Below are positions 17,189 to 47,760 of a stretch of DNA of 64,000 nt, one piece after another; positions within the stretch are counted from its first letter, which is position 1; every line of letters starts with the position of its first letter. Made by a program: the position numbers and the translations under genes. The DNA is taken from the NCBI GenBank assembly GCA_965648905.1, contig CBFGIT010000001.1, positions 32,001 to 96,000 on the forward strand, given 5' to 3'. The notes below the pieces were generated by a model, which was given only the letters and a program-made list of their open reading frames with translations, had not been told where the DNA came from and made no database searches. This DNA comes from a candidate division WOR-3 bacterium. GTDB lineage: Bacteria; Hydrothermota; Tepidihabitantia; Tepidihabitantales; Tepidihabitantaceae.

Positions 17189-18568
17189 ATGCGTGTGCTC
17201 GGCTGCCTGGCTCTGGTGGTGTCAGTCGCGTTGAGCGACTTCGAACCCGATTGCCAGATCGATAGCGGCCTGGTCAGTGCCTTCAGTGCCGCGGCTGACC
17301 CAGCCGGCAAGGTCTGGGTCGCGGTTGCCCGTGATAACGGCGAGGTGCGTTTGCTGCGGTCCGCGGACTACTGCCGGACCTGGGATAATGTCTTCCAAGT
17401 TCAGTTCGATTCAGGAGTGGGTCAGCTCCAGGTCCTCCCGGTATTTGGCGAGTCGAGTTTCATCCATGTGTTTGTGCTCAGCCGACAGGGTTCGGGCGAC
17501 CTCTGGCTCTGGCGCGTCCGGCCTGACGATTCGGACTGGGAATTGCTGCCGCTGGCGGTTGGTCCGGACACGGTCGATGACTTCTCGACAACTGCGGACA
17601 AGGACAGCTTCTACTACTTGTACTGTCTCTACGCCAACGAACATCGCACTGGTCAGACCGGCCGATTCGTCCGTTCCACTGATTTCGGCCGGACCTGGGG
17701 CATGGCGACCGACTGGTGGAACTGCTGGGACCCATACATCAGCCATACCCGAGGTTCGACCATCCACTGCGTCTGGCGCTACGCCTTGACCGGAACCGAG
17801 ATTCACTATCAGTCGAACCGGCACTACGGTGCTGCCCGTTACTGGTCGCCCAGGCGCGTGCTGTCGAGCGGTCACGACCGATGCTGGGACCCGGTTGTGG
17901 TTCAGGCCGATACTACCGACGAGTGGGATGCAACCGTCTGGGCGTTCTACACGGTAGGGCGGCGCGACACAAGTCACACCGACATCGGCTACGCAAGAAG
18001 CTGGAACTGCGGCTGGGACTGGACCCCCGGCCGTTCTTTCAGTGACCCCTACCGGGACGAGAGCCCGGCCGATGCAGCGATGGGGCTCGCCGGTGCTCGT
18101 GGTTTCGCGAGCCTGCTCTACGCCTTCGGCGGCGACCGCTACGGTGACACGGTCGTCCTCTGCCGCCGCGTATCCTGCGCTCTCCATCCGACCGTGTGGT
18201 CGGCACCGGTTCAGGTAAGTCAGATACCGGTGGCTCGAGGCCCGGCGTCAGTCAAAGCGCAACTGGTCCACTGCCCAGGAGCACCCGACCCGCTTCCGGT
18301 TGTGTTCTACTGCGGACAGAGTCAGGATGGCCCGCGCGGCGTCTACTGCTCGGCCCCGTGGCTCGAGCGCATGCCGGACCAGTCCGGACGCAGCCCGACT
18401 GCCCTCGGGCGTCGGTCGCCGGTGCTGTCCGGCCGAGTATACGATGTCAACGGCAGACTGGTCGGCCGCGTCCTGCCCGGCGCGCGGCAGTGCGCTCCGG
18501 TGCTGCGGCCGGGTGTCTACATTGTGCAGGACAACACCAGCCGTTCCCGGCTGACAATCGTGCACTGA
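17189..18568 (+). CDS. secreted Asp-box/sialidase-like propeller protein with short CTD
   Basis: Asp-boxes RSADYCRTW, RSTDFGRTW, RSWNCGWDW; tail 'VYDVNGRLV...PGVYIV'; signal peptide from ATG 17189. Confidence 0.78.
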   Translation: MRVLGCLALVVSVALSDFEPDCQIDSGLVSAFSAAADPAGKVWVAVARDNGEVRLLRSADYCRTWDNVFQVQFDSGVGQLQVLPVFGESSFIHVFVLSRQGSGDLWLWRVRPDDSDWELLPLAVGPDTVDDFSTTADKDSFYYLYCLYANEHRTGQTGRFVRSTDFGRTWGMATDWWNCWDPYISHTRGSTIHCVWRYALTGTEIHYQSNRHYGAARYWSPRRVLSSGHDRCWDPVVVQADTTDEWDATVWAFYTVGRRDTSHTDIGYARSWNCGWDWTPGRSFSDPYRDESPADAAMGLAGARGFASLLYAFGGDRYGDTVVLCRRVSCALHPTVWSAPVQVSQIPVARGPASVKAQLVHCPGAPDPLPVVFYCGQSQDGPRGVYCSAPWLERMPDQSGRSPTALGRRSPVLSGRVYDVNGRLVGRVLPGARQCAPVLRPGVYIVQDNTSRSRLTIVH

Positions 18569-18576
18569 ACCAGACG

Positions 18577-20388
18577 GTGCGCCCGACCGCGAACCGCCTG
18601 ATTATCCCGCCCATGTCGGCCGAGGAGATGGCGGCGCTCGGCTGGAACCGATGTGATGTAATAATCGTCACCGGTGATGCCTTTGTTGACCACCCGGCAT
18701 TCGGCAGCGCGGTCATTGCCCGTGTGCTTCTCGCCGCCGGATACCGGGTCGGCATCATTGCCCAGCCTGACTGGCGCAAGCCTGATTCGGTCACGCAACT
18801 CGGTCGGCCCCGGCTCTGCTTCGGCGTGACTGCGGGCAACGTCGACTCAATGCTCGCCAATCGCGGCCCATCGTCCGTACCCCGGCGCAAGGACGACTAC
18901 TCGCCTGCTGGCCAGCCTCTCAGACGGCCGGACCGGGCAACCCTGGTCTACTGCAATCTGCTCCGCCAGGCCTACAGAGACGTCCCCCTGGTCATCGGCG
19001 GTATCGAAGCCAGCCTGCGCCGGCTCGCCCATTATGACTACTGGGAAGATGCCGTGCGCCGGTCGATACTGCTCGATGCGCGCGCCGGTATCCTGCTCTA
19101 CGGTATGGCCGAGCGGTCAATGGTCGAGGTCTGCCGGCGCCTGGCCGTTGCCCGGGAAGCCGACCTCACCGGCATCCCTGGTTCGGTCGTTGCTCTGAAG
19201 AACCTGCCGACGAACCTGCGGCACGTGCTGATTCCCTCATATGATGAATGCAGCGCGAACAAGGACCGGTTCAATCAAGCGTTTCAACGCTGGCACCGCG
19301 AGGCCGACAATCCGGCCGGCAGCGCGGTTGTCCAGCCGCACGGTGACCGGCTGGTTGTTCAGCACCCTCCGCCTGCGCCGATGACCGAACGCGAACTGGA
19401 CGCGGTCTACGACCTGCCTTTTACCCGGCAGCCACACCCGAGCTATCATGACCGGATTCCGGCGCTCGAGACGGTCAGGTTCTCAATCACCTCGCACCGG
19501 GGCTGTGTCGGCTCCTGCACATTCTGCTCACTTGCTGCTCATCAGGGCCGCATCATTCAACGCCGCAGTCCTGGCTCGATTGTCCGTGAGGCCGCGGCGA
19601 TTGTGCAGATGCCTGAGTTCAAGGGTCACGTCACCGATGTCGGCGGTCCGACCGCGAACATGTACGCGGCAACCTGCCGACCGATGGCAGCCGGCCGGGT
19701 CTGCCCGGAACGAAGCTGCACCTGGCCCAGACCCTGTCCGAACTTGAGACTCAACCTCAAACAGGAGCTCGCGGTACTTGAGGCGGTGCGGCGCGTGCCC
19801 GGAGTGAAGAAAGTCTCGGTTGGAACTGGTGTCCGTTACGACCTGCTTGCCGACCAGGCCGGAGAAAGCTACCTTGAACAACTGTGCCGCCGGTTCGTGT
19901 CTGGTCAGCTTCGCGTCGCGCCCGAGCACGTCTCGAACCGCGTGCTCGCGGCAATGCGCAAGGCAGACCACGCAAGCTACCAGCGGTTCCGGTCGCAGTT
20001 CAGCCGGCTGAACCAGAAGCTCGGCCAGAAGCAGTACCTGATACCGTACTTCATCTCCGGCCATCCGGGTGCGACCCTCGACGATGCGGTTGAGCTGGCC
20101 GAGTTTCTGGTTCGCATCGAACGGTTCCGTATTCGCCAGGTCCAGCAGTTCACACCCCTGCCGATGACCGCAGCCGCGGCGATGTACCATACCGGCAAAG
20201 ACCCGTTCACTGGTCAGGCGCTGCACGTTGCCGGTGAACGGGAACAACGCCTGCAGCGTCTTCTGCTCCAGTTGCACTCGACCGACGACATCGAACGAGC
20301 AACGCGGGCGCTGCGTGCCTTTGGCCGGCCCGACCTCGCGGCAAGAATCGGTCGGCTGTGGTCAGCCCGCACCCGGCCCCGACATTGA
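18577..20388 (+). CDS. ygiQ: YgiQ (UPF0313) family radical SAM protein
   Basis: IVTGDAFVDHP, GNVDSM, GGIEASLRR.AHYDYW, CxxxCxxC (CVGSCTFC), DVGGPTANMY. Start is GTG 18577 or ATG 18613. Confidence 0.93.
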   Translation: MRPTANRLIIPPMSAEEMAALGWNRCDVIIVTGDAFVDHPAFGSAVIARVLLAAGYRVGIIAQPDWRKPDSVTQLGRPRLCFGVTAGNVDSMLANRGPSSVPRRKDDYSPAGQPLRRPDRATLVYCNLLRQAYRDVPLVIGGIEASLRRLAHYDYWEDAVRRSILLDARAGILLYGMAERSMVEVCRRLAVAREADLTGIPGSVVALKNLPTNLRHVLIPSYDECSANKDRFNQAFQRWHREADNPAGSAVVQPHGDRLVVQHPPPAPMTERELDAVYDLPFTRQPHPSYHDRIPALETVRFSITSHRGCVGSCTFCSLAAHQGRIIQRRSPGSIVREAAAIVQMPEFKGHVTDVGGPTANMYAATCRPMAAGRVCPERSCTWPRPCPNLRLNLKQELAVLEAVRRVPGVKKVSVGTGVRYDLLADQAGESYLEQLCRRFVSGQLRVAPEHVSNRVLAAMRKADHASYQRFRSQFSRLNQKLGQKQYLIPYFISGHPGATLDDAVELAEFLVRIERFRIRQVQQFTPLPMTAAAAMYHTGKDPFTGQALHVAGEREQRLQRLLLQLHSTDDIERATRALRAFGRPDLAARIGRLWSARTRPRH

Positions 20389-20420
20389 CAGGCGACCGGT
20401 TTCCAAGGATATTACTGATT

Positions 20421-21050
20421 ATGAAGTCGCGTCAACTCGTATTCCTTGTTCCGGTCCTGTTGGCCTTTGTCGCCTGCGACGAAATGGTGCCGGACGACGG
20501 CCTCACCGACCTGACCGGCGATCCGTTCAACCTGAACAGCAACATCAACGTCGTAGCGATTACCGGCAATGCCGGCTTGAGCCCCAAGGGTCCGTTCACG
20601 CTCGGCATGACCATCTCATCGAAGAGCTCCAATGTCGAGACCGATGTGCTGCCCGCCGGTCTGCTGCTCAAACGGCGCAAGAGAGATACGCAGCACATGC
20701 TGCTCCTCAAGGCACATACCGTGACAACCGGCACCGGCACCAAGACCGAACTGCTCGGAACGTTCTGCTGCAACAAGAACCGGCCCTCGCCCGACGCCGG
20801 CGATACCTTTGACCTCGGGCCGGTCACCAACAACGCCGGACTGAAACAGATCGTCAATCTCGTGCAGGACAAAGACATCTCCGGGGGCACGGCGATGTGG
20901 CTGGTGCAGCGCGCCGTGTACCTGGTGACCGATTCGACCGGCCTGACTCAGGCCTACATCGATTCACTCGAGGCATTACCTGACGAAAACAGGCAGGCGC
21001 GCCGGTACGACGCGGTCGTCAATTCACCCGGGCGTGCATGTTTTCGTTGA
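20421..21050 (+). CDS. hypothetical lipoprotein
   Basis: Lipobox FVAC; TTGACA at 20385; FCCN motif. Confidence 0.75.
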   Translation: MKSRQLVFLVPVLLAFVACDEMVPDDGLTDLTGDPFNLNSNINVVAITGNAGLSPKGPFTLGMTISSKSSNVETDVLPAGLLLKRRKRDTQHMLLLKAHTVTTGTGTKTELLGTFCCNKNRPSPDAGDTFDLGPVTNNAGLKQIVNLVQDKDISGGTAMWLVQRAVYLVTDSTGLTQAYIDSLEALPDENRQARRYDAVVNSPGRACFR

Positions 21051-21074
21051 CAAGCGCGCCAGGATTCGTAATCT
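21047..21074 (+). promoter_or_regulatory. sigma70-like promoter upstream of the poly-Lys micro-ORF
   Basis: TTGACA-16-TAATCT. Confidence 0.6.
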
Positions 21075-21218
21075 TACCGCGATGGATTCTACGACCCCGA
21101 GCCTGCGGGTCGCATCTGGACCGCTCCTTAGCTCTGACATCACGCACGACAATTGTCCGTTCCGTACGACCGCAGCCGCGAGTGCGGCGCGGTCAAGCTC
21201 TAAACCAAAGGAGGTCTG

Positions 21219-21263
21219 ATGCCTGTAAAGAAGAAGAAGGCCGCGAAGAAAAAGAAGAAGTAG
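21219..21263 (+). CDS. 14-aa lysine-rich micropeptide MPVKKKKAAKKKKK
   Basis: Strong SD AAAGGAGGT (21207-21215), ATG 21219, TAG 21261-63, downstream hairpin. Confidence 0.65.
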   Translation: MPVKKKKAAKKKKK

Positions 21264-21280
21264 GCTGCTCGAAAGCAGAC

Positions 21281-21325
21281 GCCGCTCGCCGGTGTGGCCG
21301 AGGCCACCAAGGCGAGCGGCCGTTT
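21281..21325 (+). terminator. GC-rich hairpin after the micro-ORF
   Basis: GCCGCTCGCC...GTGGCC GA GGCCAC...GGCGAGCGGC followed by CGTTT. Confidence 0.55.
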
Positions 21326-21369
21326 CTACCATGTCCTGCGCTGCGGGCCTTCTGTCCTGATTCGGTTCC

Positions 21370-21813
21370 GTGAGCCGCATCCTCTGTCTCGACTACGGTG
21401 AACGCCGCACCGGTGTGGCCGTGTCCGACGAAACCGGAACGATTGCCCGGGGTCTGTCGACCATAGCCTGCCGGTCCGATACCGAGCTGCTCAATGCAGT
21501 TCAGCAACTCGTCGCCGACTACGCCATTGCCGAGATTGTCCTCGGACTGCCGCTGAGCCTTTCGGGAAAGCCGAGCGCCCGCTCGGAAAAGGTCAAGGCC
21601 TTTGCCGCACGACTCACTCAGTCAACCGGAATCCGAGTGACGCTGGTCGACGAGCGGCTTACGACCGCGATGGCGAATCGGGCACTTTCAGAAACGCAGC
21701 AGCCGGAGCAGAGTCGCGAGAAGCGTCGTGTACGGTCCAGGCCGCGCGGCGATGCCGACCGGGTCGCTGCCACGATCATTCTCGAAGATTATCTGGCCCG
21801 GATGAGAAGCTAG
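21370..21813 (+). CDS. ruvX: YqgF/RuvX family nuclease
   Basis: RILCLDYGERRTGVAVSD, IVLGLP, VDERLTT, D.VAA.IIL. Confidence 0.95.
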   Translation: MSRILCLDYGERRTGVAVSDETGTIARGLSTIACRSDTELLNAVQQLVADYAIAEIVLGLPLSLSGKPSARSEKVKAFAARLTQSTGIRVTLVDERLTTAMANRALSETQQPEQSREKRRVRSRPRGDADRVAATIILEDYLARMRS

Positions 21814-22758
21814 ATGAGATTCGTTCGCCTGGTTCAGTTGGCTGCGTTCCTGCTTGCCTGCCGGACAACCAGTCCGCAACCCGGACCCCGGGTCGAAGTT
21901 CGGGTCCGGGCCGGGATGTCCGCAACTGAACTGGCTGACACCCTGCTCGCCCGCGGGGTCATCAGGAACCGGTTTCGGTTCATGACCCTGGCACGCTTCC
22001 ATTCCTATGAATCGCGCATCGTCTCCGGCCGGTACCACCTGCGCCTGGGAACAGATGAAGCGCGGGTCCTGCGACTGTTGAGCCGGGAAGTGCCGGCACT
22101 GGTGATGGTCACTGTTCCTGAGGGACTCACCTGCCGGCAGGTGGCCGAGCTTCTGTCAGAATGCGGCATCTGTCGTGCCGAGCAGTTCCTGGCCGCCTGC
22201 TTCGACACCGTGCTGCTGCGCGAACTCGGCATTCCGGCAACTTCGGCCGAAGGTTTTCTCTTCCCGGAAACCTACCAGTTAAGCACAACTGAGCCGCCGG
22301 CCGACATCATCCGACGGATGGTGCAGCAGTTCTTTGCCGTACTCAAAGACTCATCCGGCCCAGACCTGCTCGCCGCGGTCACGCTCGCCTCGATTGTCGA
22401 GAAGGAAGCGCGGTTGCCCGAAGAGTTCCCGCGGATTGCCGGCGTGTTTGTCAACCGGCTGAGACGCCACCTGCCTCTGCAATCCTGCGCCACGGTTCAG
22501 TATGTGCTGCCTGAGCGCAAGAACGTGCTCGCAGTTGAGGACACCAGGTACCCCTCACCCTACAACACCTATCTCCACGTCGGACTGCCGCCCGGCCCAA
22601 TCTGCAATCCGGGGCGGCGTGCGCTGGCCGCAGCCAAGAATCCCGAGCGTCACGACTACGTCTTCTTTGTTGCCCGCGGAGACGGCAGTCACGTCTTCTC
22701 CCGCACTGCGGCCGAGCACGACGCCGCCTGTGCCCGTGTGCGCCGCGGTCGCTCTTAG
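21814..22758 (+). CDS. mltG: endolytic transglycosylase
   Basis: EGFLFPETY, TLASIVEKEA, SPYNTY..GLPPGPICNPG. Confidence 0.95.
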   Translation: MRFVRLVQLAAFLLACRTTSPQPGPRVEVRVRAGMSATELADTLLARGVIRNRFRFMTLARFHSYESRIVSGRYHLRLGTDEARVLRLLSREVPALVMVTVPEGLTCRQVAELLSECGICRAEQFLAACFDTVLLRELGIPATSAEGFLFPETYQLSTTEPPADIIRRMVQQFFAVLKDSSGPDLLAAVTLASIVEKEARLPEEFPRIAGVFVNRLRRHLPLQSCATVQYVLPERKNVLAVEDTRYPSPYNTYLHVGLPPGPICNPGRRALAAAKNPERHDYVFFVARGDGSHVFSRTAAEHDAACARVRRGRS

Positions 22759-22812
22759 GTCGTTGTCGACTTCTGGGCTTGACCAACTGCGAGTTGGGCC
22801 TAATATGGAGCA

Positions 22813-24153
22813 GTGAAGACCATCCGCGACGCGGTCCACGGTGACCTTGATTTCACTGACGACGAGCTTCAGGTCATCAACACCGCCTGCTTCCAGCGCC
22901 TGCGCGGCATCAAACAGCTCGGCGCCGCGTATCTTGTCTACCCGAGCGCAACCCATACCCGGTTCGAGCACAGCCTGGGTACGTGCGGTGTCGCCCGACA
23001 GACAATCGCCCATATCCGGCGCAACTGCGGGGCACGGTCGGTGAGCGCGGACGACGAACGGCTCATCGCCATCTACGCCCTGGTCCACGACCTGACCCAC
23101 ATCCCGTTCGGGCATACCATCGAAGACGAACGTCGGGTGTTTCCCCGTCACGACCAGAACACGGCGCGGATTGACTACTTCCTTACCCGGACCGATACCG
23201 GCCGCGCTCTAGCAAAACTCGGCTTGGCACGACCGGTCGAAGAGCTGATGAAACGCAAGCGGCTGGAGAGGGGTGGGCCGACGTTCCACTACGACATTGT
23301 GTCGGGCACAATCTGTGCAGACCTGCTCGACTACCTCGAGCGCGACTCCTACTTCACCGGGCTCTCTCAGAGGTACGATGAGCGGCTCTACAAGTACTTC
23401 GTCATTGAACAGGGCGGTCTGGCAATCAACCTGATTCGTTCCGGATTGTTTCGCACGGACGGACTTTCCGAGACCCTGAACGTACTCCGCATGCGCTACG
23501 TCCTCTCTGAGCGCTGCTACTACCACCCGGCCAAGAACGCCGCCTCGGCCATGGTCTCAAAGGCGCTCGAGCTGTGCGTTGACTCGGGCAAGATGCGGCT
23601 TTCCGAACGCTCGTTCTACGATGTCGGCGACGAAGGGTTCCTGCGCATCCTCCAGGCCGGGCCTGGCCCGGCAAAGTATCTGGTTGATGCCTTTCTTGCC
23701 CGGCGGCTGTACAAGAAAGTCTATCTTGTGTCGCGCCGGAGCATCCCTTCAACCGAGCGGTTCGCTGCTTATCATCTCGACCCGGGCAAGCGGGCCGAAG
23801 CCGAGGCCTGGCTGGCGCGTAAGCTCAAGGTGCCGTTCCGCTCTGTGGTCGTCTACTGCCCCTCCTCCACGATGCAATTGCGCGAGGCGAATGCGCAATT
23901 CAAGCTCGCTCCGGGCGAACCGCCGCGCCGACTTGAAGGCAATCAGGAAATCGAGAACCTCAAGCGCCAGCAGGAGAATCTCTGGAAGTTCTTTGTTTTC
24001 CTCGACCCGGCGCACGCGGACAGATCCGCAACTGCTGGTCAACTGTGTGAAGAGTATTTCGGGCAGGCCAACGAACTGCCTGAGCTGGGCCTGGCTCAAC
24101 CCTGTGGCCCAACCGATCCGTTACGCAAGAACAGAACCGAAACGGAGGTCTAG
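22813..24153 (+). CDS. HD-domain phosphohydrolase (SAMHD1/dNTPase-like)
   Basis: FQRLR.IKQLG, VYPSATHTRFEHSLG, HDLTHIPFGH, ADLLDYLERD; promoter TTGACC-16-TAATAT 6 nt upstream. Confidence 0.9.
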   Translation: MKTIRDAVHGDLDFTDDELQVINTACFQRLRGIKQLGAAYLVYPSATHTRFEHSLGTCGVARQTIAHIRRNCGARSVSADDERLIAIYALVHDLTHIPFGHTIEDERRVFPRHDQNTARIDYFLTRTDTGRALAKLGLARPVEELMKRKRLERGGPTFHYDIVSGTICADLLDYLERDSYFTGLSQRYDERLYKYFVIEQGGLAINLIRSGLFRTDGLSETLNVLRMRYVLSERCYYHPAKNAASAMVSKALELCVDSGKMRLSERSFYDVGDEGFLRILQAGPGPAKYLVDAFLARRLYKKVYLVSRRSIPSTERFAAYHLDPGKRAEAEAWLARKLKVPFRSVVVYCPSSTMQLREANAQFKLAPGEPPRRLEGNQEIENLKRQQENLWKFFVFLDPAHADRSATAGQLCEEYFGQANELPELGLAQPCGPTDPLRKNRTETEV

Positions 24154-24539
24154 TGCACTGTCGAAGTTGTGGTAAAGAGGTCGTTGACACGGCCGAGGTC
24201 TGCGTCGGCTGCGGTAGCAAGCCCAATGCCGGCACCAAGTACTGCCAGAACTGCGGGGTCGAAACCGATCCCAGGGCCGAAGTCTGCGTCAAGTGCGGGG
24301 TCAGACTCGCGACCGCGGCGGCAGTTCAGAAAGAAGGCAAAGACTGGCTCGTGGCCCTGCTGCTTTCCATCTTCCTGGGTAAGCTGGGTGTGGACCGGTT
24401 CTATCTCGGCTACATTGGTCTTGGAATCCTCAAGCTCGTCACCGTGGGCGGCTGCGGCATCTGGTGGCTTGTTGACCTGATTCTCATCGCCTCCCATAAG
24501 CTGAAGGATTCAGACGGGCGAGAACTGGTCAGGAAGTAG
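24153..24539 (+). CDS. zinc-ribbon + TM2 domain protein
   Basis: Four CxxC pairs; 'LLSIFLGKLGVDRFYLG...GIWWLVDLILI'. Confidence 0.92.
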   Translation: MHCRSCGKEVVDTAEVCVGCGSKPNAGTKYCQNCGVETDPRAEVCVKCGVRLATAAAVQKEGKDWLVALLLSIFLGKLGVDRFYLGYIGLGILKLVTVGGCGIWWLVDLILIASHKLKDSDGRELVRK

Positions 24540-24552
24540 CAACCGCCGGAGA

Positions 24553-24885
24553 GTGTCAAGAACGACAAACGGTTCCAGGCCCGGAAGACTTGTTCTCGGC
24601 CTGGTCCTGCTTGCCGTTCTTGCCGCCCTGGCTCTGGTTCCGGTTGAGCTGGTCGAGCGCCTGCCTTCTCTCTGCCTGAACCGCCGCCTGTTCGGATTCT
24701 GCCCAGGCTGCGGTACAGTGCGTGCGCTCTCGCACCTGCTCCACGGCGACGTAGCCGGAGCACTCAGATACAACCTCAACTGCCTGATTGTCGCGCCGCT
24801 CCTGGTCGGACTCGCGGCTTGGCATGTCGTGACTGCCATGAAGCCGCGCGACCCGAGAAGAAAGGCTCAAATACCCGCAGCTTGA
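24553..24885 (+). CDS. DUF2752 family membrane protein
   Basis: 'C...LFGFCPGCG.VRAL..LLHGD...A..YN'. Confidence 0.85.
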   Translation: MSRTTNGSRPGRLVLGLVLLAVLAALALVPVELVERLPSLCLNRRLFGFCPGCGTVRALSHLLHGDVAGALRYNLNCLIVAPLLVGLAAWHVVTAMKPRDPRRKAQIPAA

Positions 24886-25448
24886 GTTCGGCCAGTGCGC
24901 CTTGGTCGCTCGCGCCCGGACATGACCATTGACCGACCGCCATCCGGCTTTGTTTCTGCTCGCGTCATCTGGTCCAAGGTGCAGCGATAGCCCGCGTCAG
25001 CACTGAAACCGAAGCCGCGACGCACGCCAAGACAGCGACCGGTCCAAACAGGCAAGAACCGGCACGCACAACTGCCTGAGCAACTGCTTGGGCAGCGGGC
25101 TCGGCGTTTGCTTCTGCCACCGCGCGCGATGCCGCTGGCGACAACGCCCGAAGTAGCTGTCCGACTTGCACTTGCGGCATCACGCCGCGCACGACCCAGA
25201 AGAGCGCCTGCCCAACTTCACTTCTTTTCATGCTAGCAGTCATGGCGTGGGGGACGGCCTCCCCCCTGTCCACCTCCACGGTAGTATGAAGAAACAGCGG
25301 CAAATCCGGCCCACAGAACCGTATAACACAGTGAAGACACCGGGACACGACCGGAAATGCGCGGGACTGTGCCTTGGTCTGGTGCGTCCAACGCACTGGC
25401 TGTCCCGCAAGTTCCGCACTGACCTGACCCGACTGGAGAAGTAACATC

Positions 25449-25829
25449 GTGAACAACAAAGACAGGCCGTTTCCCTCACCCGCAGCCGAACGCGCGGTGA
25501 ACCGCTATGCCGCAAAGCTTGAACGCGGACTCGCCGACACACGCAGCGACCGGGACCTGGCCGCTCAGACCGGGCGCTATCGCGCCGCCGCCGAACACGC
25601 CGACCTGCGCACCGTGCAACTGCGCCGGGTCCTGTGGGACATGGGCGTGCATTCCACGCTCTACTGCGTCTACCGTGCCTTCACTCTGCACGTCGACAGA
25701 CAGGTCCGCAACTACGAACACGAGACCCTGCGAATCCTGGTCAACCACGCCATCGAGCGCTGGACCCGCCGCGGCTGCGACCCGGTTGTACTGAAGGCAA
25801 TCTGCGTCCGCGTCTTCGCGTTGGGATGA
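25449..25829 (+). CDS. hypothetical protein resembling SIRV2-fold (Adnaviria) major capsid protein
   Basis: SD GGAG before GTG; basic helical 126 aa with VL..G+.....Y..F.L...R and P.VL.AI pattern (by-eye comparison). Confidence 0.55.
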   Translation: MNNKDRPFPSPAAERAVNRYAAKLERGLADTRSDRDLAAQTGRYRAAAEHADLRTVQLRRVLWDMGVHSTLYCVYRAFTLHVDRQVRNYEHETLRILVNHAIERWTRRGCDPVVLKAICVRVFALG

Positions 25830-26323
25830 GTCGAGGCTTCAGTACCGCCGAGCTCGGGTCTGAGACTTGACTGGCCACTGGCGCTTGTTCCTTGGTCATT
25901 CCCCGCATTCTGCCCGTTGACCTGCCTCCTCGCCTCTCGCTCTCTGCCATCTTGACCTTTGATACTTACCCTTTGCCCTTTGACTTATCTCCTCGCCCTT
26001 CCACGCCGGGTTCTCTGCCCAGAGCGGATTCAGGAGCCCCGGCCCAGACCGCAGCCGCAGTGACTGGCGCAGTGCCGGGCGCAGCGACAAGCGAAGCTCA
26101 AGCGGAACCAGCGGCCCCAACTTCTTCTCCGGCCAGCGCACCGATTAGGGCAACCCTGACCGTCTGGGTAGCCATGCAGGGAATGGTCACGCCGGCCCGC
26201 GTGAAGTCGGCGCGCTCGGTTAGAACGTCTGGTGGCGTTCAAACGCAGACGGAAGAGAGGACTCACGTAGCTGAAACTGCCGCCGCGCCCCAGCTTCCTT
26301 CACTCAGTCCGGGCGCTGACGGG

Positions 26324-26349
26324 TCGGGGCGGCCCGAAGGCCGCCCCGA
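26324..26349 (-). terminator. GC hairpin with UUCG tetraloop 3' of the S8 protease gene
   Basis: TCGGGGCGGCC-TTCG-GGCCGCCCCGA on the minus strand; identical copy at 47404-47429; no clear U tract. Confidence 0.6.
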
Positions 26350-26376
26350 ATGAATCGGCGTCCGTGTCGGTTCGAG

Positions 26377-29300
26377 CTAGCGCTGGAGCACGAGTTTCTG
26401 ACTGACTGAGTAAACGCCTGCGTTCAGACGCACCGTGTATACGCCGGCACTCAAGCCACGCAGGTCGAGCGGCAATGACGAAGTCCGAATGCCGAATGAC
26501 GAGCGGAGGACGCGGCGGCCTGAGGCGTCGTAGATGCTGATGCTCGGGACACGATCCGAAATGCCGGGCACTTGGGTCATGTCCCAGCACAGCGTGGCGA
26601 AGCCGGAGCGGAGCGGGTTGGGCGTGATGGTGAACCCGGCCGGTCGCCTATCGAACGCCGAGGCCAGTACGCCAGACCGGGCTGCCCGGCCCGTGGCCAG
26701 GGGCAGTACGGTTGAGCCCGGTGTGTACATCCAGAACTCCTGGGTCTTGTTGCCCTTGAGCGCAAAGCACATGCCGGATCGGCCTGATACGTAGGGCGTG
26801 ATGTCGCCGCCGAGCTTGACCTTCTTCTTCTTGCCGGTCGAGCCAAGCTCGGGCATCGCTTCCTGTTCCTGCCAGGAGTCGGCGGCAGCCAGGTATTTCC
26901 ACAGCTCGGTTGTGTTACCGCCTTTGAGCGCGTAGACGCCGTCGTGCAACCACGCACCGGCCGCGCCGTCTTTCGACTTCTTGGACTTGCCCAGTCGGCC
27001 GATGAGCGGCATGCCCGGCCGATTCGGACCCCAGGCATCGTCGATGATGTCATAGGCGAAGAGGACGTGATACTTGGCCTGGTGCACAAACACGGTCCGG
27101 TCGTCGTCATAGACCGCAAACGAGCCCGGGCCGAGCTTAAGTACGGGCGCGGGAATTGAGGCAAGTGGAGTCCAAGAGTCACTCACCGGGTCATAGCGGT
27201 AGAACTCGTTCTTGTCGCCCTTGACAAGGTAGACCTTGCCCTGGGCATACGCGACATCAGCGCCGCCTTTGACCCGCCGGTTTGAGGTGCCGAGCGGGAC
27301 CGGCTCAAGGGCTGACCAGGAGTCGTGTGCCGCATCGTACCGGTAGAAGCCCTGGGTGTTGTTGCCTTTGACCATGTAGACCAGGCCGTTACCGTCAGCG
27401 CAGGCATTGGCGCCTTTGCCGACCAACTTGTTCTCAACTCCGGCCGGAATCGGGCGGCGTGCGCTCCAGGAGTCGCCGACCGGGTCATAGGCGTAGAAGT
27501 CCGCGGTCTTGCCCCCGGCCGCAGCGTAGACCTTCATCGTTGCCGGCTCACCGACAACAAACGCACCAGCCTTGGCCGCAAGGGGCAGGCGGGCACGTTC
27601 AAGCCAGGGCGGCGGCGGCGGCCCGGTGATGAAGCTGAACTGACCGGTGAGCGTATCGTTGGCCGGGTTACCGTCGTAGGCAACACTGGTCGAGCAACGA
27701 GTCGTGTAGCTGCCTGGATCGTGTGGTTTGGGCAGAGTATCAAAGCCTACCATCACCGAACTGCCCGGAGCCAGACTGGTGACCGTGCGGCTGCTTGAGT
27801 AGATGACCGAGTTGGCCTGGTCCAGAATCCGGAAGAACACGGTCGGCGCAGCGGCAAAGTTGCCCTGGTTGCGCACGGTTGCTGCCGGCACAACGACTGC
27901 GCCGGTATCGACACTGCCGACCGGAGAGTTGATTGCGCTCACGCCCACGTCCACCCGGCCGACGGTGAATGCCTGAGCTAGCGAATCGTTCGCCGGCACT
28001 TGATCACCGCTCATCCTTGAGCGGCAGACCGCAGTGTACGATCCGGTCCAGGCATCCCAGTTCGGGAAGGTCGCGGTTGTATCGACACCCGAGGGCAGAC
28101 CCAGAGGCAGGTCCAGGCTCTCAAGATACGCGGGCGATGAGTTGATGGCGAAGAACAGGCGGACCGGGTCGCGCTGCGTGCCGTAGTTGTGCACGACCGC
28201 GGCTGGCATGGTCGGCCCGGGCGGCACCATGCCTGAGGGCGACACAATCTGCGTTACACCGACATCACGCACCGCAACATAGACCGTGCCAAGCACCGTG
28301 TCGTTCGCGGCTACCATGTCTGCGGCGAGCATGGTCGTGCATCTTGTTGCTAGGGCACCGCGCTGGAGCGCGGTCCAGGACGCAAAGTTCACCGCCTGCG
28401 ATGCACCGGCAGCCAGATTGGTCACGGTCTGGGTGTTCGAGTAGCCAGAGCCGATGTTGAGCCGGACATTGAACGTCGCCGCCTGAGTCCCGTTGTTCCG
28501 GACTGTGGCCTGGGGCGCAATCACTGCGCCCGAATCGACCGTGCCGGTCGGAGCATTGATCGATACTGCCTCGGCGTCGAGCACGCGGACAAACACGTTC
28601 CCGGTCGCGATGTTGTTAGCCGGAACCATGTCACCAGTCAGCATCGTGGTGCATCTTGTCGCCAGAGTGCCGCGCTGGAGCGCGGTCCAGGACGCAAAGT
28701 TCACCGCCTGTGACGCACCGGCGGCCAGATTGGTCACGGTCTGGGTGTTCGAGTAGCCGGAGCCGATGTCGAACCGGACATTGAATGTCGCCGCCTGAGT
28801 CCCGTTGTTCCGGACTGTGGCCTGGGGCGCAATCACTGCGCCCGAATCGACCGTGCCGGTCGGCACATTGATTGATACTGCTTCAGCATCGAGCACGCGC
28901 ACAAGAACTGACCCGGTGTCACGGTCATTAGCCGGGGCAATGTCACCCGGGAGTTCGGTCGAGCATCGCACCACCTGGATACCGCGCGGCCAGTTCGAGC
29001 CGGCCAAGAAGGTCACATAGCGTGCCGTGCCCGGCGCATGAGCGGTGATGGCTGCGATCTGGTTGTAGCTCGACCCGATTCTCATCCGCACCTGGTAATC
29101 AACCGTGCTCGAGCCGTAGTTGTACACTGTGCAGGCCGGAACCACCGACTGGGTCGAGTCGATCGTGCCGGTTGGTACTATGATGCGGCGCACGCCGACG
29201 TCGCCGACCTGGCGGCTGACGTCACCGGTAATGGTCCAGGCAAAGGGCTGGCGCGCGCTCGTTGCCACTTGGAAACCGTAAACCCGGATCGTCCAGACCC

Positions 29301-31308
29301 CGGTCGCCGGTGAGTTGACGCGGACGCACTCCTCAACGTTCAGCGTATCCCAGACAGTCGGGTTCGGCGTTGACTGGCCCCCAGAATACTGGTTGCCGCG
29401 ATAGACTGTTCCGCCCGGAGCAATCACTTCGAGGTTCAGGTTGTTGACCAGGGTGCGCGACGCGCTGGGCGCGGCTGCAGTGTCGGTCCAGGCCAGGGCA
29501 ACTCGCAGCGGAATCGAGGAGTTCACCACGAACTGCTCTTCCTTGTACTGGCCGGTGCTCACGCCCGAGGTGTCGTCTTTGATAATCAGCTTGCGCGTAT
29601 CACCAGCAAAATAGAGCACCGAGTCAGCATCAATCCGGCCCCAGCCGATATCGAAGCTAGGCACGACGTACGACCCGATGTTCGGGTCAGCCGAAGCAAC
29701 GGCCATCGAACGCAGCAGGGCCGCGCTGATATACGAGATGCTGTCAGCCGGGTTCGCAGTTCCGGTCGGATAGTAGCCCTCACGCAGATAGCAGCGCATC
29801 AAACCGACCGTGCCGTTGACTGCTGGCGTTGCCATTGAAGTTCCGGACATCTGCTGGTAGGTATTGGTCCCGGACGACGTCGCCGAGTACAGATTCACCC
29901 CTGGCGCGCAGACCGTCGGCTTCAGCCGATTGTCCGCGGTCGGCCCGCGGCTGGAAAAACTGGCAATGGCGTTCGACGAAGTGCCGTTCTGGGTCGCACC
30001 GACCGTAATCACGTTCTTGGCAATACCGGGATTGCGGATCCGCCGCGTGCTCGTCTCGTTGCCGGCAGCCATGATATTGAGGAAATCCTTGTATACCCAG
30101 GAGTAGTTGTCGGTCGAGGCGTCCATCAGCAGATAGGTTCCGCTCGAGTTGGACCAGCCCCAACTTCCCGAGTGCTGACGAATCGGCCGCAGCGAGTCAG
30201 GCAGACCCCGGCCAAGATAGACCGAGTCCCAGAGCGGAGTCAGGTCATCGCTGATGACGAAGGTCCCGGAGCTGTTGGTCAGGTCAACAAAGTAGAGGCG
30301 TCCCTTGATTGACATGCCATCGTAGTAGCTGGTCCCGCCCGTGACCGAGTCGTCGCCCGCCACCGTGCCGTTGACGTGGCTGCCGTGGTAGGGCGTTTCA
30401 CCCTGTTGTGCGCCCTGATACAGCTTGAACGCAACGACTTTGCGGTGCGTCGGCCATATCCCGGGCGCAGTCACCGACAGGTTCGGGTCACGGAAAAGGT
30501 TATGGCCAAGGTTCAGTCCGGTGTCGGTCGTTGATAGAATCACCCGCTGGCCGCGCACACCTTTCGCCCAGACCTTGCGCGCCGTCATGCTCGTGTCCGG
30601 CGGCGCAGTTGACTGCCAGCCGGTCTGCACGACCCACTGGCAGTTGTTGTTACACAGCTCAGGCTCGGTCCAGAGCTGAACCCAGATAACCTCCTGCAGC
30701 CGGGCAATCGCCGGTATTGCCGAGGCCGGAACCGTCACCGTTATCGACGTGCAGAACTCAGACTCGACCACATCGGCATACGCCGCACCCTGGTCAGCCA
30801 GCACCTGAAGAATGGGTCGGTGCTCCTCGCCCGGGGTCACGACGATGACCAGTTTGACGCTGCCCGAAGCACTAAGCAGTACGTCCTGTAACTTGTACGC
30901 CGGCTGAAACAGACCGACCCAGTGCACCATCGGCAATGCCTGGACTGCGGCCTTCTGGGCCGGTTCGAGCTTGGCCAGAACCGCGTAGCTCGGCAGGTAG
31001 CCGAAAGGCCGGACATCAATTCGCCTGAGCTCCTGATACCACTCCGGCCTTATCGGGCCGTTGAACTGGATGATGTGGTAGGCAGGGCCGGGCTGGTGTT
31101 CGGAAAGCGCCAGCTCCGGCGGGATTGCAGACACGCCGGTTCGGGTATCGACCACGAACCCGTTGGAAAAACTGACTTCGTTCAGCTCATTTCCTGCCAC
31201 CGGGTCAAAGTGCCGCGCCGGGCCCATGCTGTAGTGCGATGACGGTCGGGCAGAACCGTTGCTGGCCAGCGCGCAAAGAACGGACAGGCAAACGACGAGC
31301 GCTTTCAT
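26377..31308 (-). CDS. S8 subtilisin-like protease + P-like domain + CARDB repeats + Kelch-like propeller + T9SS-type CTD
   Basis: Catalytic motifs DTG, HGSHVNGT, GTSMATP; AAGN; SD GGAGG before ATG 31308 (MKALVV signal); C-terminal PNP..IYDASGR..GVY..KLVLQR. Confidence 0.93.
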   Translation of the reverse strand: MKALVVCLSVLCALASNGSARPSSHYSMGPARHFDPVAGNELNEVSFSNGFVVDTRTGVSAIPPELALSEHQPGPAYHIIQFNGPIRPEWYQELRRIDVRPFGYLPSYAVLAKLEPAQKAAVQALPMVHWVGLFQPAYKLQDVLLSASGSVKLVIVVTPGEEHRPILQVLADQGAAYADVVESEFCTSITVTVPASAIPAIARLQEVIWVQLWTEPELCNNNCQWVVQTGWQSTAPPDTSMTARKVWAKGVRGQRVILSTTDTGLNLGHNLFRDPNLSVTAPGIWPTHRKVVAFKLYQGAQQGETPYHGSHVNGTVAGDDSVTGGTSYYDGMSIKGRLYFVDLTNSSGTFVISDDLTPLWDSVYLGRGLPDSLRPIRQHSGSWGWSNSSGTYLLMDASTDNYSWVYKDFLNIMAAGNETSTRRIRNPGIAKNVITVGATQNGTSSNAIASFSSRGPTADNRLKPTVCAPGVNLYSATSSGTNTYQQMSGTSMATPAVNGTVGLMRCYLREGYYPTGTANPADSISYISAALLRSMAVASADPNIGSYVVPSFDIGWGRIDADSVLYFAGDTRKLIIKDDTSGVSTGQYKEEQFVVNSSIPLRVALAWTDTAAAPSASRTLVNNLNLEVIAPGGTVYRGNQYSGGQSTPNPTVWDTLNVEECVRVNSPATGVWTIRVYGFQVATSARQPFAWTITGDVSRQVGDVGVRRIIVPTGTIDSTQSVVPACTVYNYGSSTVDYQVRMRIGSSYNQIAAITAHAPGTARYVTFLAGSNWPRGIQVVRCSTELPGDIAPANDRDTGSVLVRVLDAEAVSINVPTGTVDSGAVIAPQATVRNNGTQAATFNVRFDIGSGYSNTQTVTNLAAGASQAVNFASWTALQRGTLATRCTTMLTGDMVPANNIATGNVFVRVLDAEAVSINAPTGTVDSGAVIAPQATVRNNGTQAATFNVRLNIGSGYSNTQTVTNLAAGASQAVNFASWTALQRGALATRCTTMLAADMVAANDTVLGTVYVAVRDVGVTQIVSPSGMVPPGPTMPAAVVHNYGTQRDPVRLFFAINSSPAYLESLDLPLGLPSGVDTTATFPNWDAWTGSYTAVCRSRMSGDQVPANDSLAQAFTVGRVDVGVSAINSPVGSVDTGAVVVPAATVRNQGNFAAAPTVFFRILDQANSVIYSSSRTVTSLAPGSSVMVGFDTLPKPHDPGSYTTRCSTSVAYDGNPANDTLTGQFSFITGPPPPPWLERARLPLAAKAGAFVVGEPATMKVYAAAGGKTADFYAYDPVGDSWSARRPIPAGVENKLVGKGANACADGNGLVYMVKGNNTQGFYRYDAAHDSWSALEPVPLGTSNRRVKGGADVAYAQGKVYLVKGDKNEFYRYDPVSDSWTPLASIPAPVLKLGPGSFAVYDDDRTVFVHQAKYHVLFAYDIIDDAWGPNRPGMPLIGRLGKSKKSKDGAAGAWLHDGVYALKGGNTTELWKYLAAADSWQEQEAMPELGSTGKKKKVKLGGDITPYVSGRSGMCFALKGNKTQEFWMYTPGSTVLPLATGRAARSGVLASAFDRRPAGFTITPNPLRSGFATLCWDMTQVPGISDRVPSISIYDASGRRVLRSSFGIRTSSLPLDLRGLSAGVYTVRLNAGVYSVSQKLVLQR
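26546..26585 (-). repeat. palindromic element copy in the protease CTD
   Basis: GGGACATGACCCAAGTGCCCGGCATTTCGGATCGTGTCCC on the coding strand. Confidence 0.75.
28311..28903 (-). repeat. tandem 312-nt duplication of a CARDB unit
   Basis: Near-identical blocks offset by 312 nt (e.g. 28369 and 28681). Confidence 0.9.
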
Positions 31309-31458
31309 GGTGCCTCCTGGATTATTGCTCTGGACCGGGTGAAGTAATCCTACCGGGCATACCATGAAGTGTCAAAATCGGCCGGGCCGATGTTGAACCT
31401 CTGCCGGACTTGGCTAGAATCGCTTTCTATCCGCCGAACCTGCCCGAAAGGACCACTC

Positions 31459-32913
31459 ATGCGACCCGTACTGCGCCTGTTATCCGACAGCCTGGTTGAA
31501 CAGGTCCTGGCCGAAGCCCGGACTCTCCTCTGCGGTCTGGGAATGATCGTGCACAACGACGCGGTGTTGCGACTGCTTGGTGAGCACGGTGCCGAAGTTG
31601 ACCTTGCCCGCCACCATGTTCGGTTCAACAACGACATTATCGACTATGGCCTCAAATCCGCTCCCCGCTCATTCAAGCTGTTCGACCTGCTCGGCAACCA
31701 GACCCATGAGTTTGCTGGCGACAACGTCTATTTCACCCCTGGCTCGGCCGCCTTGAATATCCTTGACTCCAGCACCGGCCAGATGCGGCGACCGAAGACT
31801 CCGGACTATGTCGAGTACGTTAAGCTCGTAAGCGGGCTTGACCACCTTGCGGCTCAGAGTACGGCGCTGATTCCTGATGACGTGCCGGAGCGCATCTCGG
31901 ACAGCTATCGGCTGTATCTGAGCCTGCTCTTTGGCGAGAAGCCGGTTGTCACCGGCTGCTTCACTATCGAGTCGTTCGCGGTGATGCGTGACATGCAGGT
32001 CACGGTCCGGGGTTCAATTGAGGCGCTTGCAGCCAAGCCGCTCACCATTTTCTCCTGCTGCCCGACTGCCCCGCTCAAGTGGAGCGATGTTACTTCTCAG
32101 AACCTGGTCGACTGCGCAACCTGCGGCATTCCGGTCGAGTTCATCTCGATGCCTTTGTCCGGGTTCATGGCTCCGGTCACGCTCGTGGGAACACTGGTAC
32201 AGCACACGGCTGAGACCCTGAGCGGAGTAGTCATCAGTCAACTTGCCCGGCCGGGTACGCCGGTCCTCTATGGCGGCTCGCCGGCAATCTTCGACGTGCG
32301 GCGCGAAACCACGCCGATGGGTGCAATCGAGACGATGATGACCGACTGCGCTTACTCGGAAATCGGCAAGCATCTTGGCCTGCCGACCCAGGCCTATATT
32401 TCCTTGAGTGATGCCAAACTGCTCGATGCGCAGGCCGGACTTGAGACCGGGGTCGGCGCAATTCTCGCTGCCCTTTCTGGGATCAACAGCGTCTCCGGCC
32501 CGGGTATGCTCGACTTCGAAAGCTGCCAGAGCCTTGAGAAGCTCGTGCTCGACAACGAAGTCTGCGGCATGGCTGTGCGTCTTGTGCAGGGCATCGAGCC
32601 GAAGGACGACTTTCCAGCGCTGCCGCTCTTTGAGGAGCTGCTCAAAGAAGGTCATCTGCTCATCAGCCGCCATACCCGGCGCTGGCTCAAGACCGAGCAC
32701 TTTTTCCCGGGTCCGGTTATTGATCGCGCCAACCACGGCCGCTGGCTTTCCGAGGGTGCTCTGACTCTGGCTGAGCGTGCCCGGCAGGAGAAAGAGCGTA
32801 TCATCAGTCGCTGGCAGCCGACAAGACTGCCTGAGGATGTGAAGAGAGAGCTGACCCGTCTGATGAGTGCTGAAGCCCGTCGCTGCGGGATGGAGCGCCT
32901 GCCCGCACTGTGA
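31459..32913 (+). CDS. trimethylamine methyltransferase (MttB) superfamily, non-pyrrolysine
   Basis: PL.W, MAPVTLVG.LV...AE.LSG, QL..PGTPVLYGG, D.K..DAQAG.E, GPGML; no in-frame TAG. Confidence 0.92.
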   Translation: MRPVLRLLSDSLVEQVLAEARTLLCGLGMIVHNDAVLRLLGEHGAEVDLARHHVRFNNDIIDYGLKSAPRSFKLFDLLGNQTHEFAGDNVYFTPGSAALNILDSSTGQMRRPKTPDYVEYVKLVSGLDHLAAQSTALIPDDVPERISDSYRLYLSLLFGEKPVVTGCFTIESFAVMRDMQVTVRGSIEALAAKPLTIFSCCPTAPLKWSDVTSQNLVDCATCGIPVEFISMPLSGFMAPVTLVGTLVQHTAETLSGVVISQLARPGTPVLYGGSPAIFDVRRETTPMGAIETMMTDCAYSEIGKHLGLPTQAYISLSDAKLLDAQAGLETGVGAILAALSGINSVSGPGMLDFESCQSLEKLVLDNEVCGMAVRLVQGIEPKDDFPALPLFEELLKEGHLLISRHTRRWLKTEHFFPGPVIDRANHGRWLSEGALTLAERARQEKERIISRWQPTRLPEDVKRELTRLMSAEARRCGMERLPAL

Positions 32914-33632
32914 GAGCTATCTGCCGATTCGCTGCCACCGACTGCATTCCAGACCGGAGAGACGTGCTTTCAGCCGAAGGCATGGCTGGTTCGAGCCCGG
33001 CTTCAGCCGTGACCGAAGAGCTTCTTACCCGCGCCTTGGCCATGTTCAGCGCGAAGGCAACTCCGGTCGGTGTCTACGCCGACATCAGTATTCCAGAGTT
33101 CAGCGCGGTCTTTGCCGGCGAAGGTCAGAACGACCCTGAGGCGCCGCTTCGTAATATCTTCCCGAGAGCAGACAAGCTCGCCTTGTTTGCCTGTACGGTC
33201 GGCCCAGAGCTGAACCGGCAAATAGCTGACCTGTTCGAGCAGCACGAGTACGCGCTCGGGTATGTGCTTGACGCGGTTTCATCCTGCGGTACCGAGCGTC
33301 TTGCCGACCTGGTTCAGGCTGGCTGGGCGCGGGACATGAACGAATTGTCCGACAATTCGTATCGTGTCCCAAGCCCGCTGGTCGCCCTCGCCTACAGCCC
33401 GGGCTACTGCGGCTGGCACGTTTCTGCTCAGCGGCAGCTGTTCCGGTTTCTGAGGCCGGAGGAGATCGGCATCACCCTCAGGGAAAGCTGCCTGATGGAG
33501 CCGCTCAAGTCGGTTTCGGGCGTGTTCGTTCTTGGCCCGAGAGAGATTCACCAGTTCGACAACACTCTTGGTTTCTGCACCGAGTGTCGGTCTGCCACCT
33601 GTCGCGGCCGGCAGCAATCAGCAAAGGAGTAA
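32910..33632 (+). CDS. standalone B12-dependent methionine synthase activation-domain protein
   Basis: FACTVG, YSPGYCGW...Q..LF, IGITL.ESCLM.P.KSVSG, terminal CxxCxxxxC. Confidence 0.85.
   Translation: MRAICRFAATDCIPDRRDVLSAEGMAGSSPASAVTEELLTRALAMFSAKATPVGVYADISIPEFSAVFAGEGQNDPEAPLRNIFPRADKLALFACTVGPELNRQIADLFEQHEYALGYVLDAVSSCGTERLADLVQAGWARDMNELSDNSYRVPSPLVALAYSPGYCGWHVSAQRQLFRFLRPEEIGITLRESCLMEPLKSVSGVFVLGPREIHQFDNTLGFCTECRSATCRGRQQSAKE
33331..33370 (+). repeat. palindromic element copy, in frame
   Basis: GGGACATGAACGAATTGTCCGACAATTCGTATCGTGTCCC. Confidence 0.75.
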
Positions 33633-47376: not shown

Positions 47377-47403
47377 CTCGAACCGGCACGGGCGCCGACT
47401 CAT

Positions 47404-47429
47404 TCGGGGCGGCCTTCGGGCCGCCCCGA
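47404..47429 (+). terminator. GC hairpin with UUCG tetraloop
   Basis: TCGGGGCGGCCTTCGGGCCGCCCCGA, identical to 26324-26349. Confidence 0.6.
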
Positions 47430-47760
47430 CCCGTCTTGCCAAGACCGGATGCTGGCCCGGCTGTCAAGCTCTGCGCTGACCGCCCCGCTTTCGTCGGTTG
47501 GCTGGTCGCGGCTCGCAGGTTCGCGGCCGGCGTTGTCACTATCGATCGGCGGCTCAGAACTGTCACTGCCACCATCGTCGGCTTGCCCGGCCGGAGCAGT
47601 CCGGCTGGAGCCGTGACGCCACGCCTCACCGCCTGCCGCTGCAGCGCAACTTAGGTTACGGCATGTGGCTCTGAGAATTCCTAGGGACGCGGGCGTGGTC
47701 GCGGTGTCCCGGAATGACAAGTGGCGGCACAAAGGCCGCCACTTGGAGCCTTGCAGCGGA

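Follow-up and report, generated by a model that had tools for sequence, protein, structure and literature searches.

Filamentous viruses of the realm Adnaviria carry the closest described counterparts of the protein reported here. In two accounts of the realm, the 2025 ICTV profile and a review, the capsid protein is presented as the only gene common to all adnavirians, its fold is termed unique, and Adnaviria are described as restricted to archaea and unconnected to bacterial viruses (PMC12282232, PMC10848233). Rudiviruses, according to two sources, have one capsid gene, the product of which forms a homodimer, while other adnavirians have two paralogous genes, the products of which form a heterodimer (PMC7189273, PMC12282232). 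The viral dimers, as described in one of these, use their N-terminal helices to clamp DNA, with positive residues gripping the phosphates (PMC12282232). The nearest proteins to ours, at 17-21% identity, are the rudiviral capsid proteins (SIRV2 ORF134, 3J9X; the C-terminal domain from SIRV-YNP, 3F2E; SSRV1, 6WQ0; Pfam family PF12193; phrog_7510). The capsid pairs of the enveloped adnavirians are also close systems: AFV1 ORF140 and ORF132 (5W7G, 3FBZ, 3FBL), the genes of which are adjacent, SFV1 (6D5F), SIFV (6WQ2) and PFV2 (6V7B). A full-text search, which covered the subscription literature only partly, found no paper tying the SIRV2 fold or Adnaviria to bacteria or to WOR-3, and found PF12193 only in an archaeal virome preprint.

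We analysed a window of 64,000 nucleotides (C1:32001-96000) from the 3.01 Mb, 60-contig genome of a candidate division WOR-3 bacterium (G000). An earlier note, made by reading the letters of the window, had picked out one open reading frame (ORF) as resembling the DNA-wrapping capsid protein of archaeal filamentous viruses. The features at this locus are as follows.

25002-25390, no strand: non-coding repeat that occupies the greater part of the upstream gap and matches C2:134742-135117 at 76% identity across 390 nt
25287-25336, + strand: two-block conserved leader, promoter-like, with a 50-nt core about 110 nt 5' of the start
25435-25441, + strand: Shine-Dalgarno-like GGAGAAG, 7 bases 5' of the GTG start, read from the sequence
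25449-25829, + strand: the ORF, coding for a basic, all-helical protein of 126 aa that is a solo member of a bacterial Adnaviria-capsid-like family
25930-26194, no strand: downstream gap, a patchwork of short repeats common to other contigs (blastn to C55, C52, C1, C12 and C4)

The ORF has a GTG start, 126 codons and a TGA stop. Its frame is open from 25428 with no ATG, GTG or TTG ahead of the GTG, and the start is kept in relatives, the N-termini of which read MNNKD, MTNRD or MNNQD. The surrounding gap (24886-26376, 1,491 bases) is poorly coding apart from the ORF: third-position GC is 0.80 in the ORF and 0.63 and 0.61 in the two ORFs that fill its flanks, in which no Pfam family was found at E < 0.089. 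The gap also gave no tRNA, no credible Rfam match and no match to a sigma-70-type promoter. The gene is chromosomal and lies between a DUF2752 gene and a gene for an S8 protease of 1,662 aa with CARDB, Kelch and a type IX secretion (T9SS) tail. Pfam families in the neighbourhood (18196-33629) are radical SAM, RuvX, YceG, HD, TM2, DUF2752, S8 protease, MttB and a B12 methionine-synthase domain, and no integrase or viral gene was seen among the 12 ORFs scanned there. The earlier note had thus described the locus correctly as a basic helical ORF with its own Shine-Dalgarno sequence, in about 1.5 kb of poorly coding DNA and with no integrase or other viral gene nearby. The small membrane-protein pair upstream (24153-24885) consists of a zinc-ribbon and TM2-domain gene followed directly by the DUF2752 gene. 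In a sister species (G182, C25, L048) the contig with the orthologous HD and TM2 genes stops directly behind the TM2 gene, about 460 nt past the HD gene, so the assembly breaks near the site of the repeat-rich gap of the window; in another genome (G187) the HD gene is found without adjoining TM2 and DUF2752 genes.

We searched for relatives of the protein in a scan of 1.84 billion representative proteins, which gave 112 proteins at E ≤ 0.001 and 34 at E ≤ 1e-10. Besides these distant relatives there are three close ones (91, 62 and 61% identity), all from records of candidate division WOR-3 bacteria. An alignment of 87 rows (A2) was built from the query, proteins P0001 and P0002 and 84 of the 112; it leaves out P0004, short or partial matches and two-domain forms. 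P0004 (4,132 aa) was dropped as a relative, being a repetitive unrelated protein the score of which is the sum of 26 weak stretches. Near-invariant in A2 are M1, Q40, Y75, F78, W105, G109 and L115, and most paralogues share the motif RAxxRYxxxLxxGxxxxRxDGDxxxQxxxYR in the N-terminal third. The ORF protein has a pI of 10.0 and a net charge of +8, of which +4 falls to the N-terminal 45 residues, much like the SIRV2 capsid protein (pI 10.2, net +9). The pI exceeds 8 in 82 of the 87 members, the other five not being basic. A homologue search with the A2 profile returned seven proteins at near lengths and none among longer proteins; therefore, no helix-turn-helix (HTH) fusion of at least 325 aa was found. 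A search of the ESM Atlas gave no usable match, and a scan of genome contigs gave only two matches, both short and spurious (Bifidobacterium and Pseudogracilibacillus records).

Taken alone, the ORF protein has PF12193 (Sulf_coat_C) as its best Pfam match, at E 0.21 and 12.1 bits, below the gathering cut-off of 25.2 bits, and phmmer against the PDB returned only CsoR (E 0.13). Such a single-sequence match is a lead, not a result. With the A2 profile, hmmsearch of the PDB sequences gave 11 matches at E ≤ 10, and seven of the top eight were adnaviral capsid chains: 6wq0_A of SSRV1 (E 1.9e-4), 6d5f_a of SFV1 (E 0.0066, with a HMMER alignment spanning residues 11-125), 3j9x_A of SIRV2 (E 0.033), 5w7g_B of AFV1 (E 0.048), 3f2e_A of SIRV (E 0.057), and 5w7g_A and 3fbz_A of AFV1 (both E 0.12). 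The remaining entry is a SURP protein, matched over the N-terminal 53 positions only. PF12193 was matched by 28 of the 87 members at E ≤ 1 (best 2.3e-5), the next family by two; the best paralogue in this genome (C1:182463-182834) reached 24.9 bits, just below the cut-off. Among 38,880 PHROGs the same paralogue matched only phrog_7510 (E 0.0052) and phrog_18994, the AFV1 capsid (E 0.0091). Phrog_7510, the rudiviral capsid family that SIRV2 ORF134 itself matches at 1.8e-84, was the sole PHROG matched by two of the 87 members.

We compared A2 directly with an alignment of seven viral capsid proteins (A3: SIRV2 ORF134, AJ344259; four other rudiviral proteins; AFV1 ORF140 and ORF132). Hhalign gave 96.0% probability (E 4.5e-9, 90 columns, score 55.7), and 54.6% (E 1.2e-4) against SIRV2 ORF134 alone. 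The likeness is beyond chance, as the reversed viral alignment gave 0.2% and a score of 11.9, and 59 column shuffles gave at most 1.4% and at most 17.6. The invariant Tyr76 of the viral proteins (motif YxxF) aligns with the near-invariant Y75 and F78 of the bacterial family. The earlier note had aligned three strings by eye with SIRV2 strings, all of which are present in the real SIRV2 ORF134 (AJ344259). Two of these pairings, QLRRVLWDMGVHSTLYCVYRAFTLHVDR with NVSAVLTQYGITGPNRAIYQGFGLKVAR and GCDPVVLKAI with NANPQVLDAV, fall in the same register in hhalign. The remaining pairing, of RYAAKL with RYAKWQAKF, falls within none of the rudiviral alignments obtained; these cover residues 36-125 only (starting at 36-42). 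Its sole backing is the alignment that HMMER gave to the capsid protein of SFV1.

The predicted fold led to the same proteins. AlphaFold2 on A2 gave a model with a pLDDT of 93.1 and a pTM of 0.81, in which five helices are seen (residues 11-25, 37-64, 69-88, 91-107 and 112-123). As scored by VIA-align against 48,161 PDB representatives, ranks 1-7 were all adnaviral capsid proteins: 3f2e, the C-terminal domain of the SIRV coat protein (13.3; rmsd 1.2 Å over 76 of 83 residues), 6wq0_A, SSRV1 capsid protein (12.5), 3fbl, AFV1 ORF132 (12.2), 3fbz, AFV1 ORF140 (12.1), 5w7g_B, AFV1 ORF132 in the virion (9.3; residues 11-126 of the model), 6d5f, SFV1 capsid protein (9.2), and 6wq2, SIFV capsid protein (8.1). 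The first unrelated chain, 8j2w_B, followed at rank 8 (7.5). Foldseek placed the same adnaviral proteins at PDB ranks 1-10 with probabilities up to 1.00, none at E ≤ 0.001, and in the BFVD collection of viral structures the SIRV coat protein ranked first, again with no match at E ≤ 0.001. In the model, then, the SIRV2-type bundle of four helices is present at the C-terminus. The putative N-terminal arm (helices 11-25 and 37-64) also aligns with 5w7g_B; because the rudiviral sequence alignments cover only residues 36-125, its equivalence to the DNA-wrapping arm of the viral proteins rests on the model and the one SFV1 alignment.

Thus, the profile and structural matches to SIRV2-type capsid proteins that the earlier note had left to be checked were both found, the former in PDB sequences, Pfam, hhalign and PHROGs, the latter in the top ranks of VIA-align and, at E above 0.001, of Foldseek. 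It is highly improbable that the likeness reflects convergence on a common four-helix bundle. Identity to the viral proteins is indeed only 10-21%, helical bundles reach high structural scores by chance, and the single-sequence searches were not significant. However, four independent libraries (PDB sequences, Pfam, PHROGs and our own viral alignment) returned the same viral family and little else, the shuffle control was clean, and the viral Tyr76/YxxF meets conserved residues of the bacterial family. The clean structural ranking and the sequence evidence together carry the case for homology, and the ORF protein is very probably a homologue of the Adnaviria major capsid protein.

We examined how widely the family is spread. 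Of the 272 genomes of the phylum that were searched with the A2 profile, 65 had matches at E ≤ 1e-5. They are that of the window and, among the 65 others of its order, 64 (43 of 43, 10 of 10, 5 of 6, 2 of 2 and 4 of 4 by taxonomic family). The sole genome of the order without a match is 68% complete, and none of the 207 genomes of the phylum outside the order was matched. A profile search of six-frame ORFs of the window's genome turned up 11 ORFs at E ≤ 1e-7, and four more with weaker scores. The number of matches is 2-6 in each genome of 1.3-2.0 Mb and 13 to at least 15 in each of 2.6-4.7 Mb, the latter with 53-136 first-look candidates each. Conservation in relatives, on which the earlier note had made its proposal depend, and the number of paralogues, which it had asked to be counted, are therefore clear (three close and 112 distant relatives, 65 genomes; at least 11 copies in this genome and many in relatives). 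The ORF can be called lone, as it was there, only locally, because the genome carries these paralogues. The family is many-copied, chromosomally inherited and very probably not viral.

Many members come in pairs. Among the 48 members for which 900 nt or more of upstream sequence was available, 29 are immediately preceded by a diverged paralogue of the same orientation, and 19, including the ORF of the window, are solo. In three of 49 cases member and partner share one open frame, and the natural two-domain proteins (236-272 aa) have the partner before the member. This split into tandem and solo genes resembles the viral one between rudiviruses, with a single gene, and other adnavirians, with two. 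At our locus no remnant of a partner gene came to light when all six frames of 24401-26500 were searched with HMMs of the family and of the partner (best other match E 0.04).

To see the genes around other members, eight copies in this genome (93 ORFs in six regions) and 20 copies in 13 other genomes (130 ORFs) were scanned. No integrase, transposase, terminase, portal or other capsid family was found in the 29 neighbourhoods at the thresholds used. Several sites recur between genomes: members adjoin ClpB in two species of a single genus, and others precede the rplM-rpsI operon, are close to ThrRS or neighbour S8 proteases. Toxin-antitoxin or defence genes (HicAB, PIN, HepT, restriction-modification enzymes, AIPR, OLD with UvrD) are no more than about 3 kb away at about 10 of 28 loci. 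An ECF-type sigma gene lies between family genes in loci L051 and L037, and a copy in L036 has one at a distance of about 900 nt; in L054 and L068, HTH_31 genes abut two-domain forms. Roughly estimated, no link of this kind clearly exceeds chance. L036 (G000 C1:182463-193064) is a stretch of about 10 kb bracketed by a solo family gene and a tandem family pair. Within it are HicAB, a protein with sigma-70 region 4, an SF1 helicase that carries a restriction-endonuclease domain, DUF5131 and a DprA-like gene, and the stretch looks like a variable or defence island. In L037 (G000 C10:75384-83605) a family gene, the ECF-type sigma gene and an HPr-like gene lie beside a SNF2 helicase, an OLD-family ATPase and a UvrD helicase, which form a Gabija-like trio; the order family gene-sigma-family gene of this locus recurs in G187 (L051).

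The DNA flanking the ORF is made up largely of repeats. The upstream one (25002-25390) is also 67% identical over 272 nt to C11; it has no conserved frame, and its indels are not multiples of three. The leader core within it had, at E ≤ 0.001, three matches in this genome and seven in that of the sister species; the 42 remaining genomes of the taxonomic family gave none. Copies of the leader lie at 25287-25336 of the window, at L071, L073, L074 and L076-L079, and at G000 C2:134964-135073, and its second conserved block contains CGTATAAC. Four of nine placed copies are 88-230 nt 5' of family genes, and the remaining ones stand before genes for an acyl carrier protein, an HsdM-like protein or a membrane protein, or before nothing that could be recognised. 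The leader is a genus-specific repeated element and may be a mobile promoter-bearing repeat. Among the downstream repeats, the C52 match sits just 3' of another family gene. A 12-bp tandem repeat of 2.8 copies (26056-26088), 230 nt 3' of the ORF, is the sole period-12 repeat near it, and is probably there by chance because short period-12 rows are common in the genome (211 TRF rows at the same threshold). Further on, 59 bases (26318-26376) recur at 47377-47435 with 95% identity and contain GC-rich hairpin arms (26324-26334 and 26339-26349); the hairpin is placed after the S8 protease gene, and the segment may be a shared terminator or gene-end module. Elsewhere in the genome, a 24-bp tandem array of about six copies occurs at three places (C21:28640-28783, C10:637-795 and C12:19455-19613), one of them 95 nt from a weak family member (C21:28878-29237), and was not seen beside other family genes. 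A period-71 array (G000 C40:12935-14979; over 14 units, each a repeat of about 36 nt and a spacer) resembles a CRISPR array.

What the protein does can be approached through its viral relatives. Since its charge is like that of the SIRV2 capsid protein and the viral dimers clamp DNA, the bacterial proteins may act as dsDNA-binding dimers; the tandem paralogues and natural fusions of the family lend such pairing indirect support. The likeliest reading, which we hold tentatively, is that the ORF encodes a cellular homologue of the Adnaviria capsid protein that serves as a local DNA-coating or architectural protein, and, a shade more tentatively, that it does so as a DNA-clamping dimer. Two subunits would pair and clamp dsDNA between their basic N-terminal helices, following the viral relatives; the solo copy of the window would pair with itself, and tandem copies with the divergent paralogue whose gene directly precedes theirs. 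The protein's task would be to coat DNA locally or to play an architectural role, with low sequence specificity and no part in a virion. That the protein dimerises, binds and coats DNA and affects its conformation in any way is what we infer from the relatives; the homology, the fold, the basic charge, the size and spread of the family, the tandem and fused arrangement and the non-viral context come from the analysis itself. A domesticated DNA-coating or nucleoid protein, one of two origins suggested in the earlier note, would fit this evidence. A farther-reaching version, which we consider improbable, is that homo- or heterodimers of the proteins coat cellular or invading DNA in the manner of a capsid, possibly holding it in A-form. 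The family would then be either the cellular source that supplied the capsid of all Adnaviria, or an archaeal-virus capsid that a bacterial lineage captured and turned to cellular use.

The main rivals are sequence-specific regulation and a protein-protein role. The many copies in variable, defence-rich regions would suit a part in regulation or conflict no less than an architectural part. The fold could have become a lineage-specific set of transcription regulators that bind operators as homo- or heterodimers without coating, consistent with a copy number that climbs with genome size, with varied neighbour genes including those for HTH_31 and ECF-type sigma proteins, and with the conserved leader, which precedes four family genes in the genus. 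We regard this as unlikely, as the basic N-terminal arm is the most conserved part of the protein, where specificity should vary, a regulator is nearby at only about 5 of 28 loci (near chance by rough estimate), and no known DNA-reading motif is present. Equally doubtful is a reuse of the fold for protein-protein contacts off DNA, in a two-component module such as a sigma-factor partner or a toxin-antitoxin-like pair. The small genes of a pair abut or overlap and have many copies, toxin-antitoxin or defence genes are often close, and sigma genes are sandwiched between members; however, the pair genes are paralogues and are also fused, as the genes of a toxin and its antidote seldom are, solo genes make up 19 of 48 members, and the strongly basic charge is that of the viral DNA binders.

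The other origin suggested in the earlier note, a trace of a bacterial filamentous dsDNA element, is disfavoured, because the family occurs throughout one order, its chromosomal sites are conserved, and the 29 neighbourhoods scanned showed no genes of viruses or mobile elements. It is very unlikely that the ORF is a working or decaying capsid gene of an unrecognised filamentous dsDNA virus of bacteria or of another mobile element. The many copies, many of them matched within a few hundred bases of contig ends, the repeats that make up the flanks of the ORF, and islands in which some copies accompany restriction-modification and defence genes and a phage-type DUF5131 gene could all be expected of such an element. 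Yet scanning of 12, 93 and 130 ORFs in the three sets of neighbourhoods disclosed no integrase, transposase, terminase, portal or other capsid family; the family is in every adequately complete genome of the order, and several of its sites are conserved between genomes. Moreover, a paralogue searched by tblastn against 50,697 records of phages and archaeal viruses had no match, and the characterised adnavirians are all lytic according to the ICTV profile (PMC12282232).

The putative local DNA-coating protein can be set against what is known on either side. Compared with the rudiviral capsid gene, the bacterial one is chromosomal, lies among housekeeping genes, is present in at least 11 copies per genome and is known here from genes alone; its product has an N-terminal arm with its own motif, and its host phylum is not known to have been linked to Adnaviria. 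Presence on the genome of a filamentous virus, a trait of the realm, is not seen, the genes being chromosomal with no viral families in the 29 neighbourhoods. On the cellular side stand H-NS-like silencers and the small acid-soluble spore proteins, which give DNA an A-like form. The likeness to such nucleoid proteins would lie in the way of working: small, basic, oligomerising, with several paralogues and little sequence preference. By sequence and fold, these nucleoid and DNA-coating proteins are not known to be related to the bacterial capsid-like family; the H-NS C-terminal DNA-binding domain (PF00816, Histone_HNS) had matches in two of the 87 members (best E 0.037), the ORF protein not being one of them.

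The bacterial family, large and vertically inherited, would provide the first non-viral and non-archaeal members of the capsid fold. With bacterial relatives at hand, the origin of the capsid protein becomes testable, as a cellular DNA-binding protein recruited by viruses or a viral gene captured by cells. The family also supplies soluble, diverse proteins with which to test if the fold alone wraps DNA and alters its form, and it points to a possible new kind of bacterial chromatin or regulator protein.
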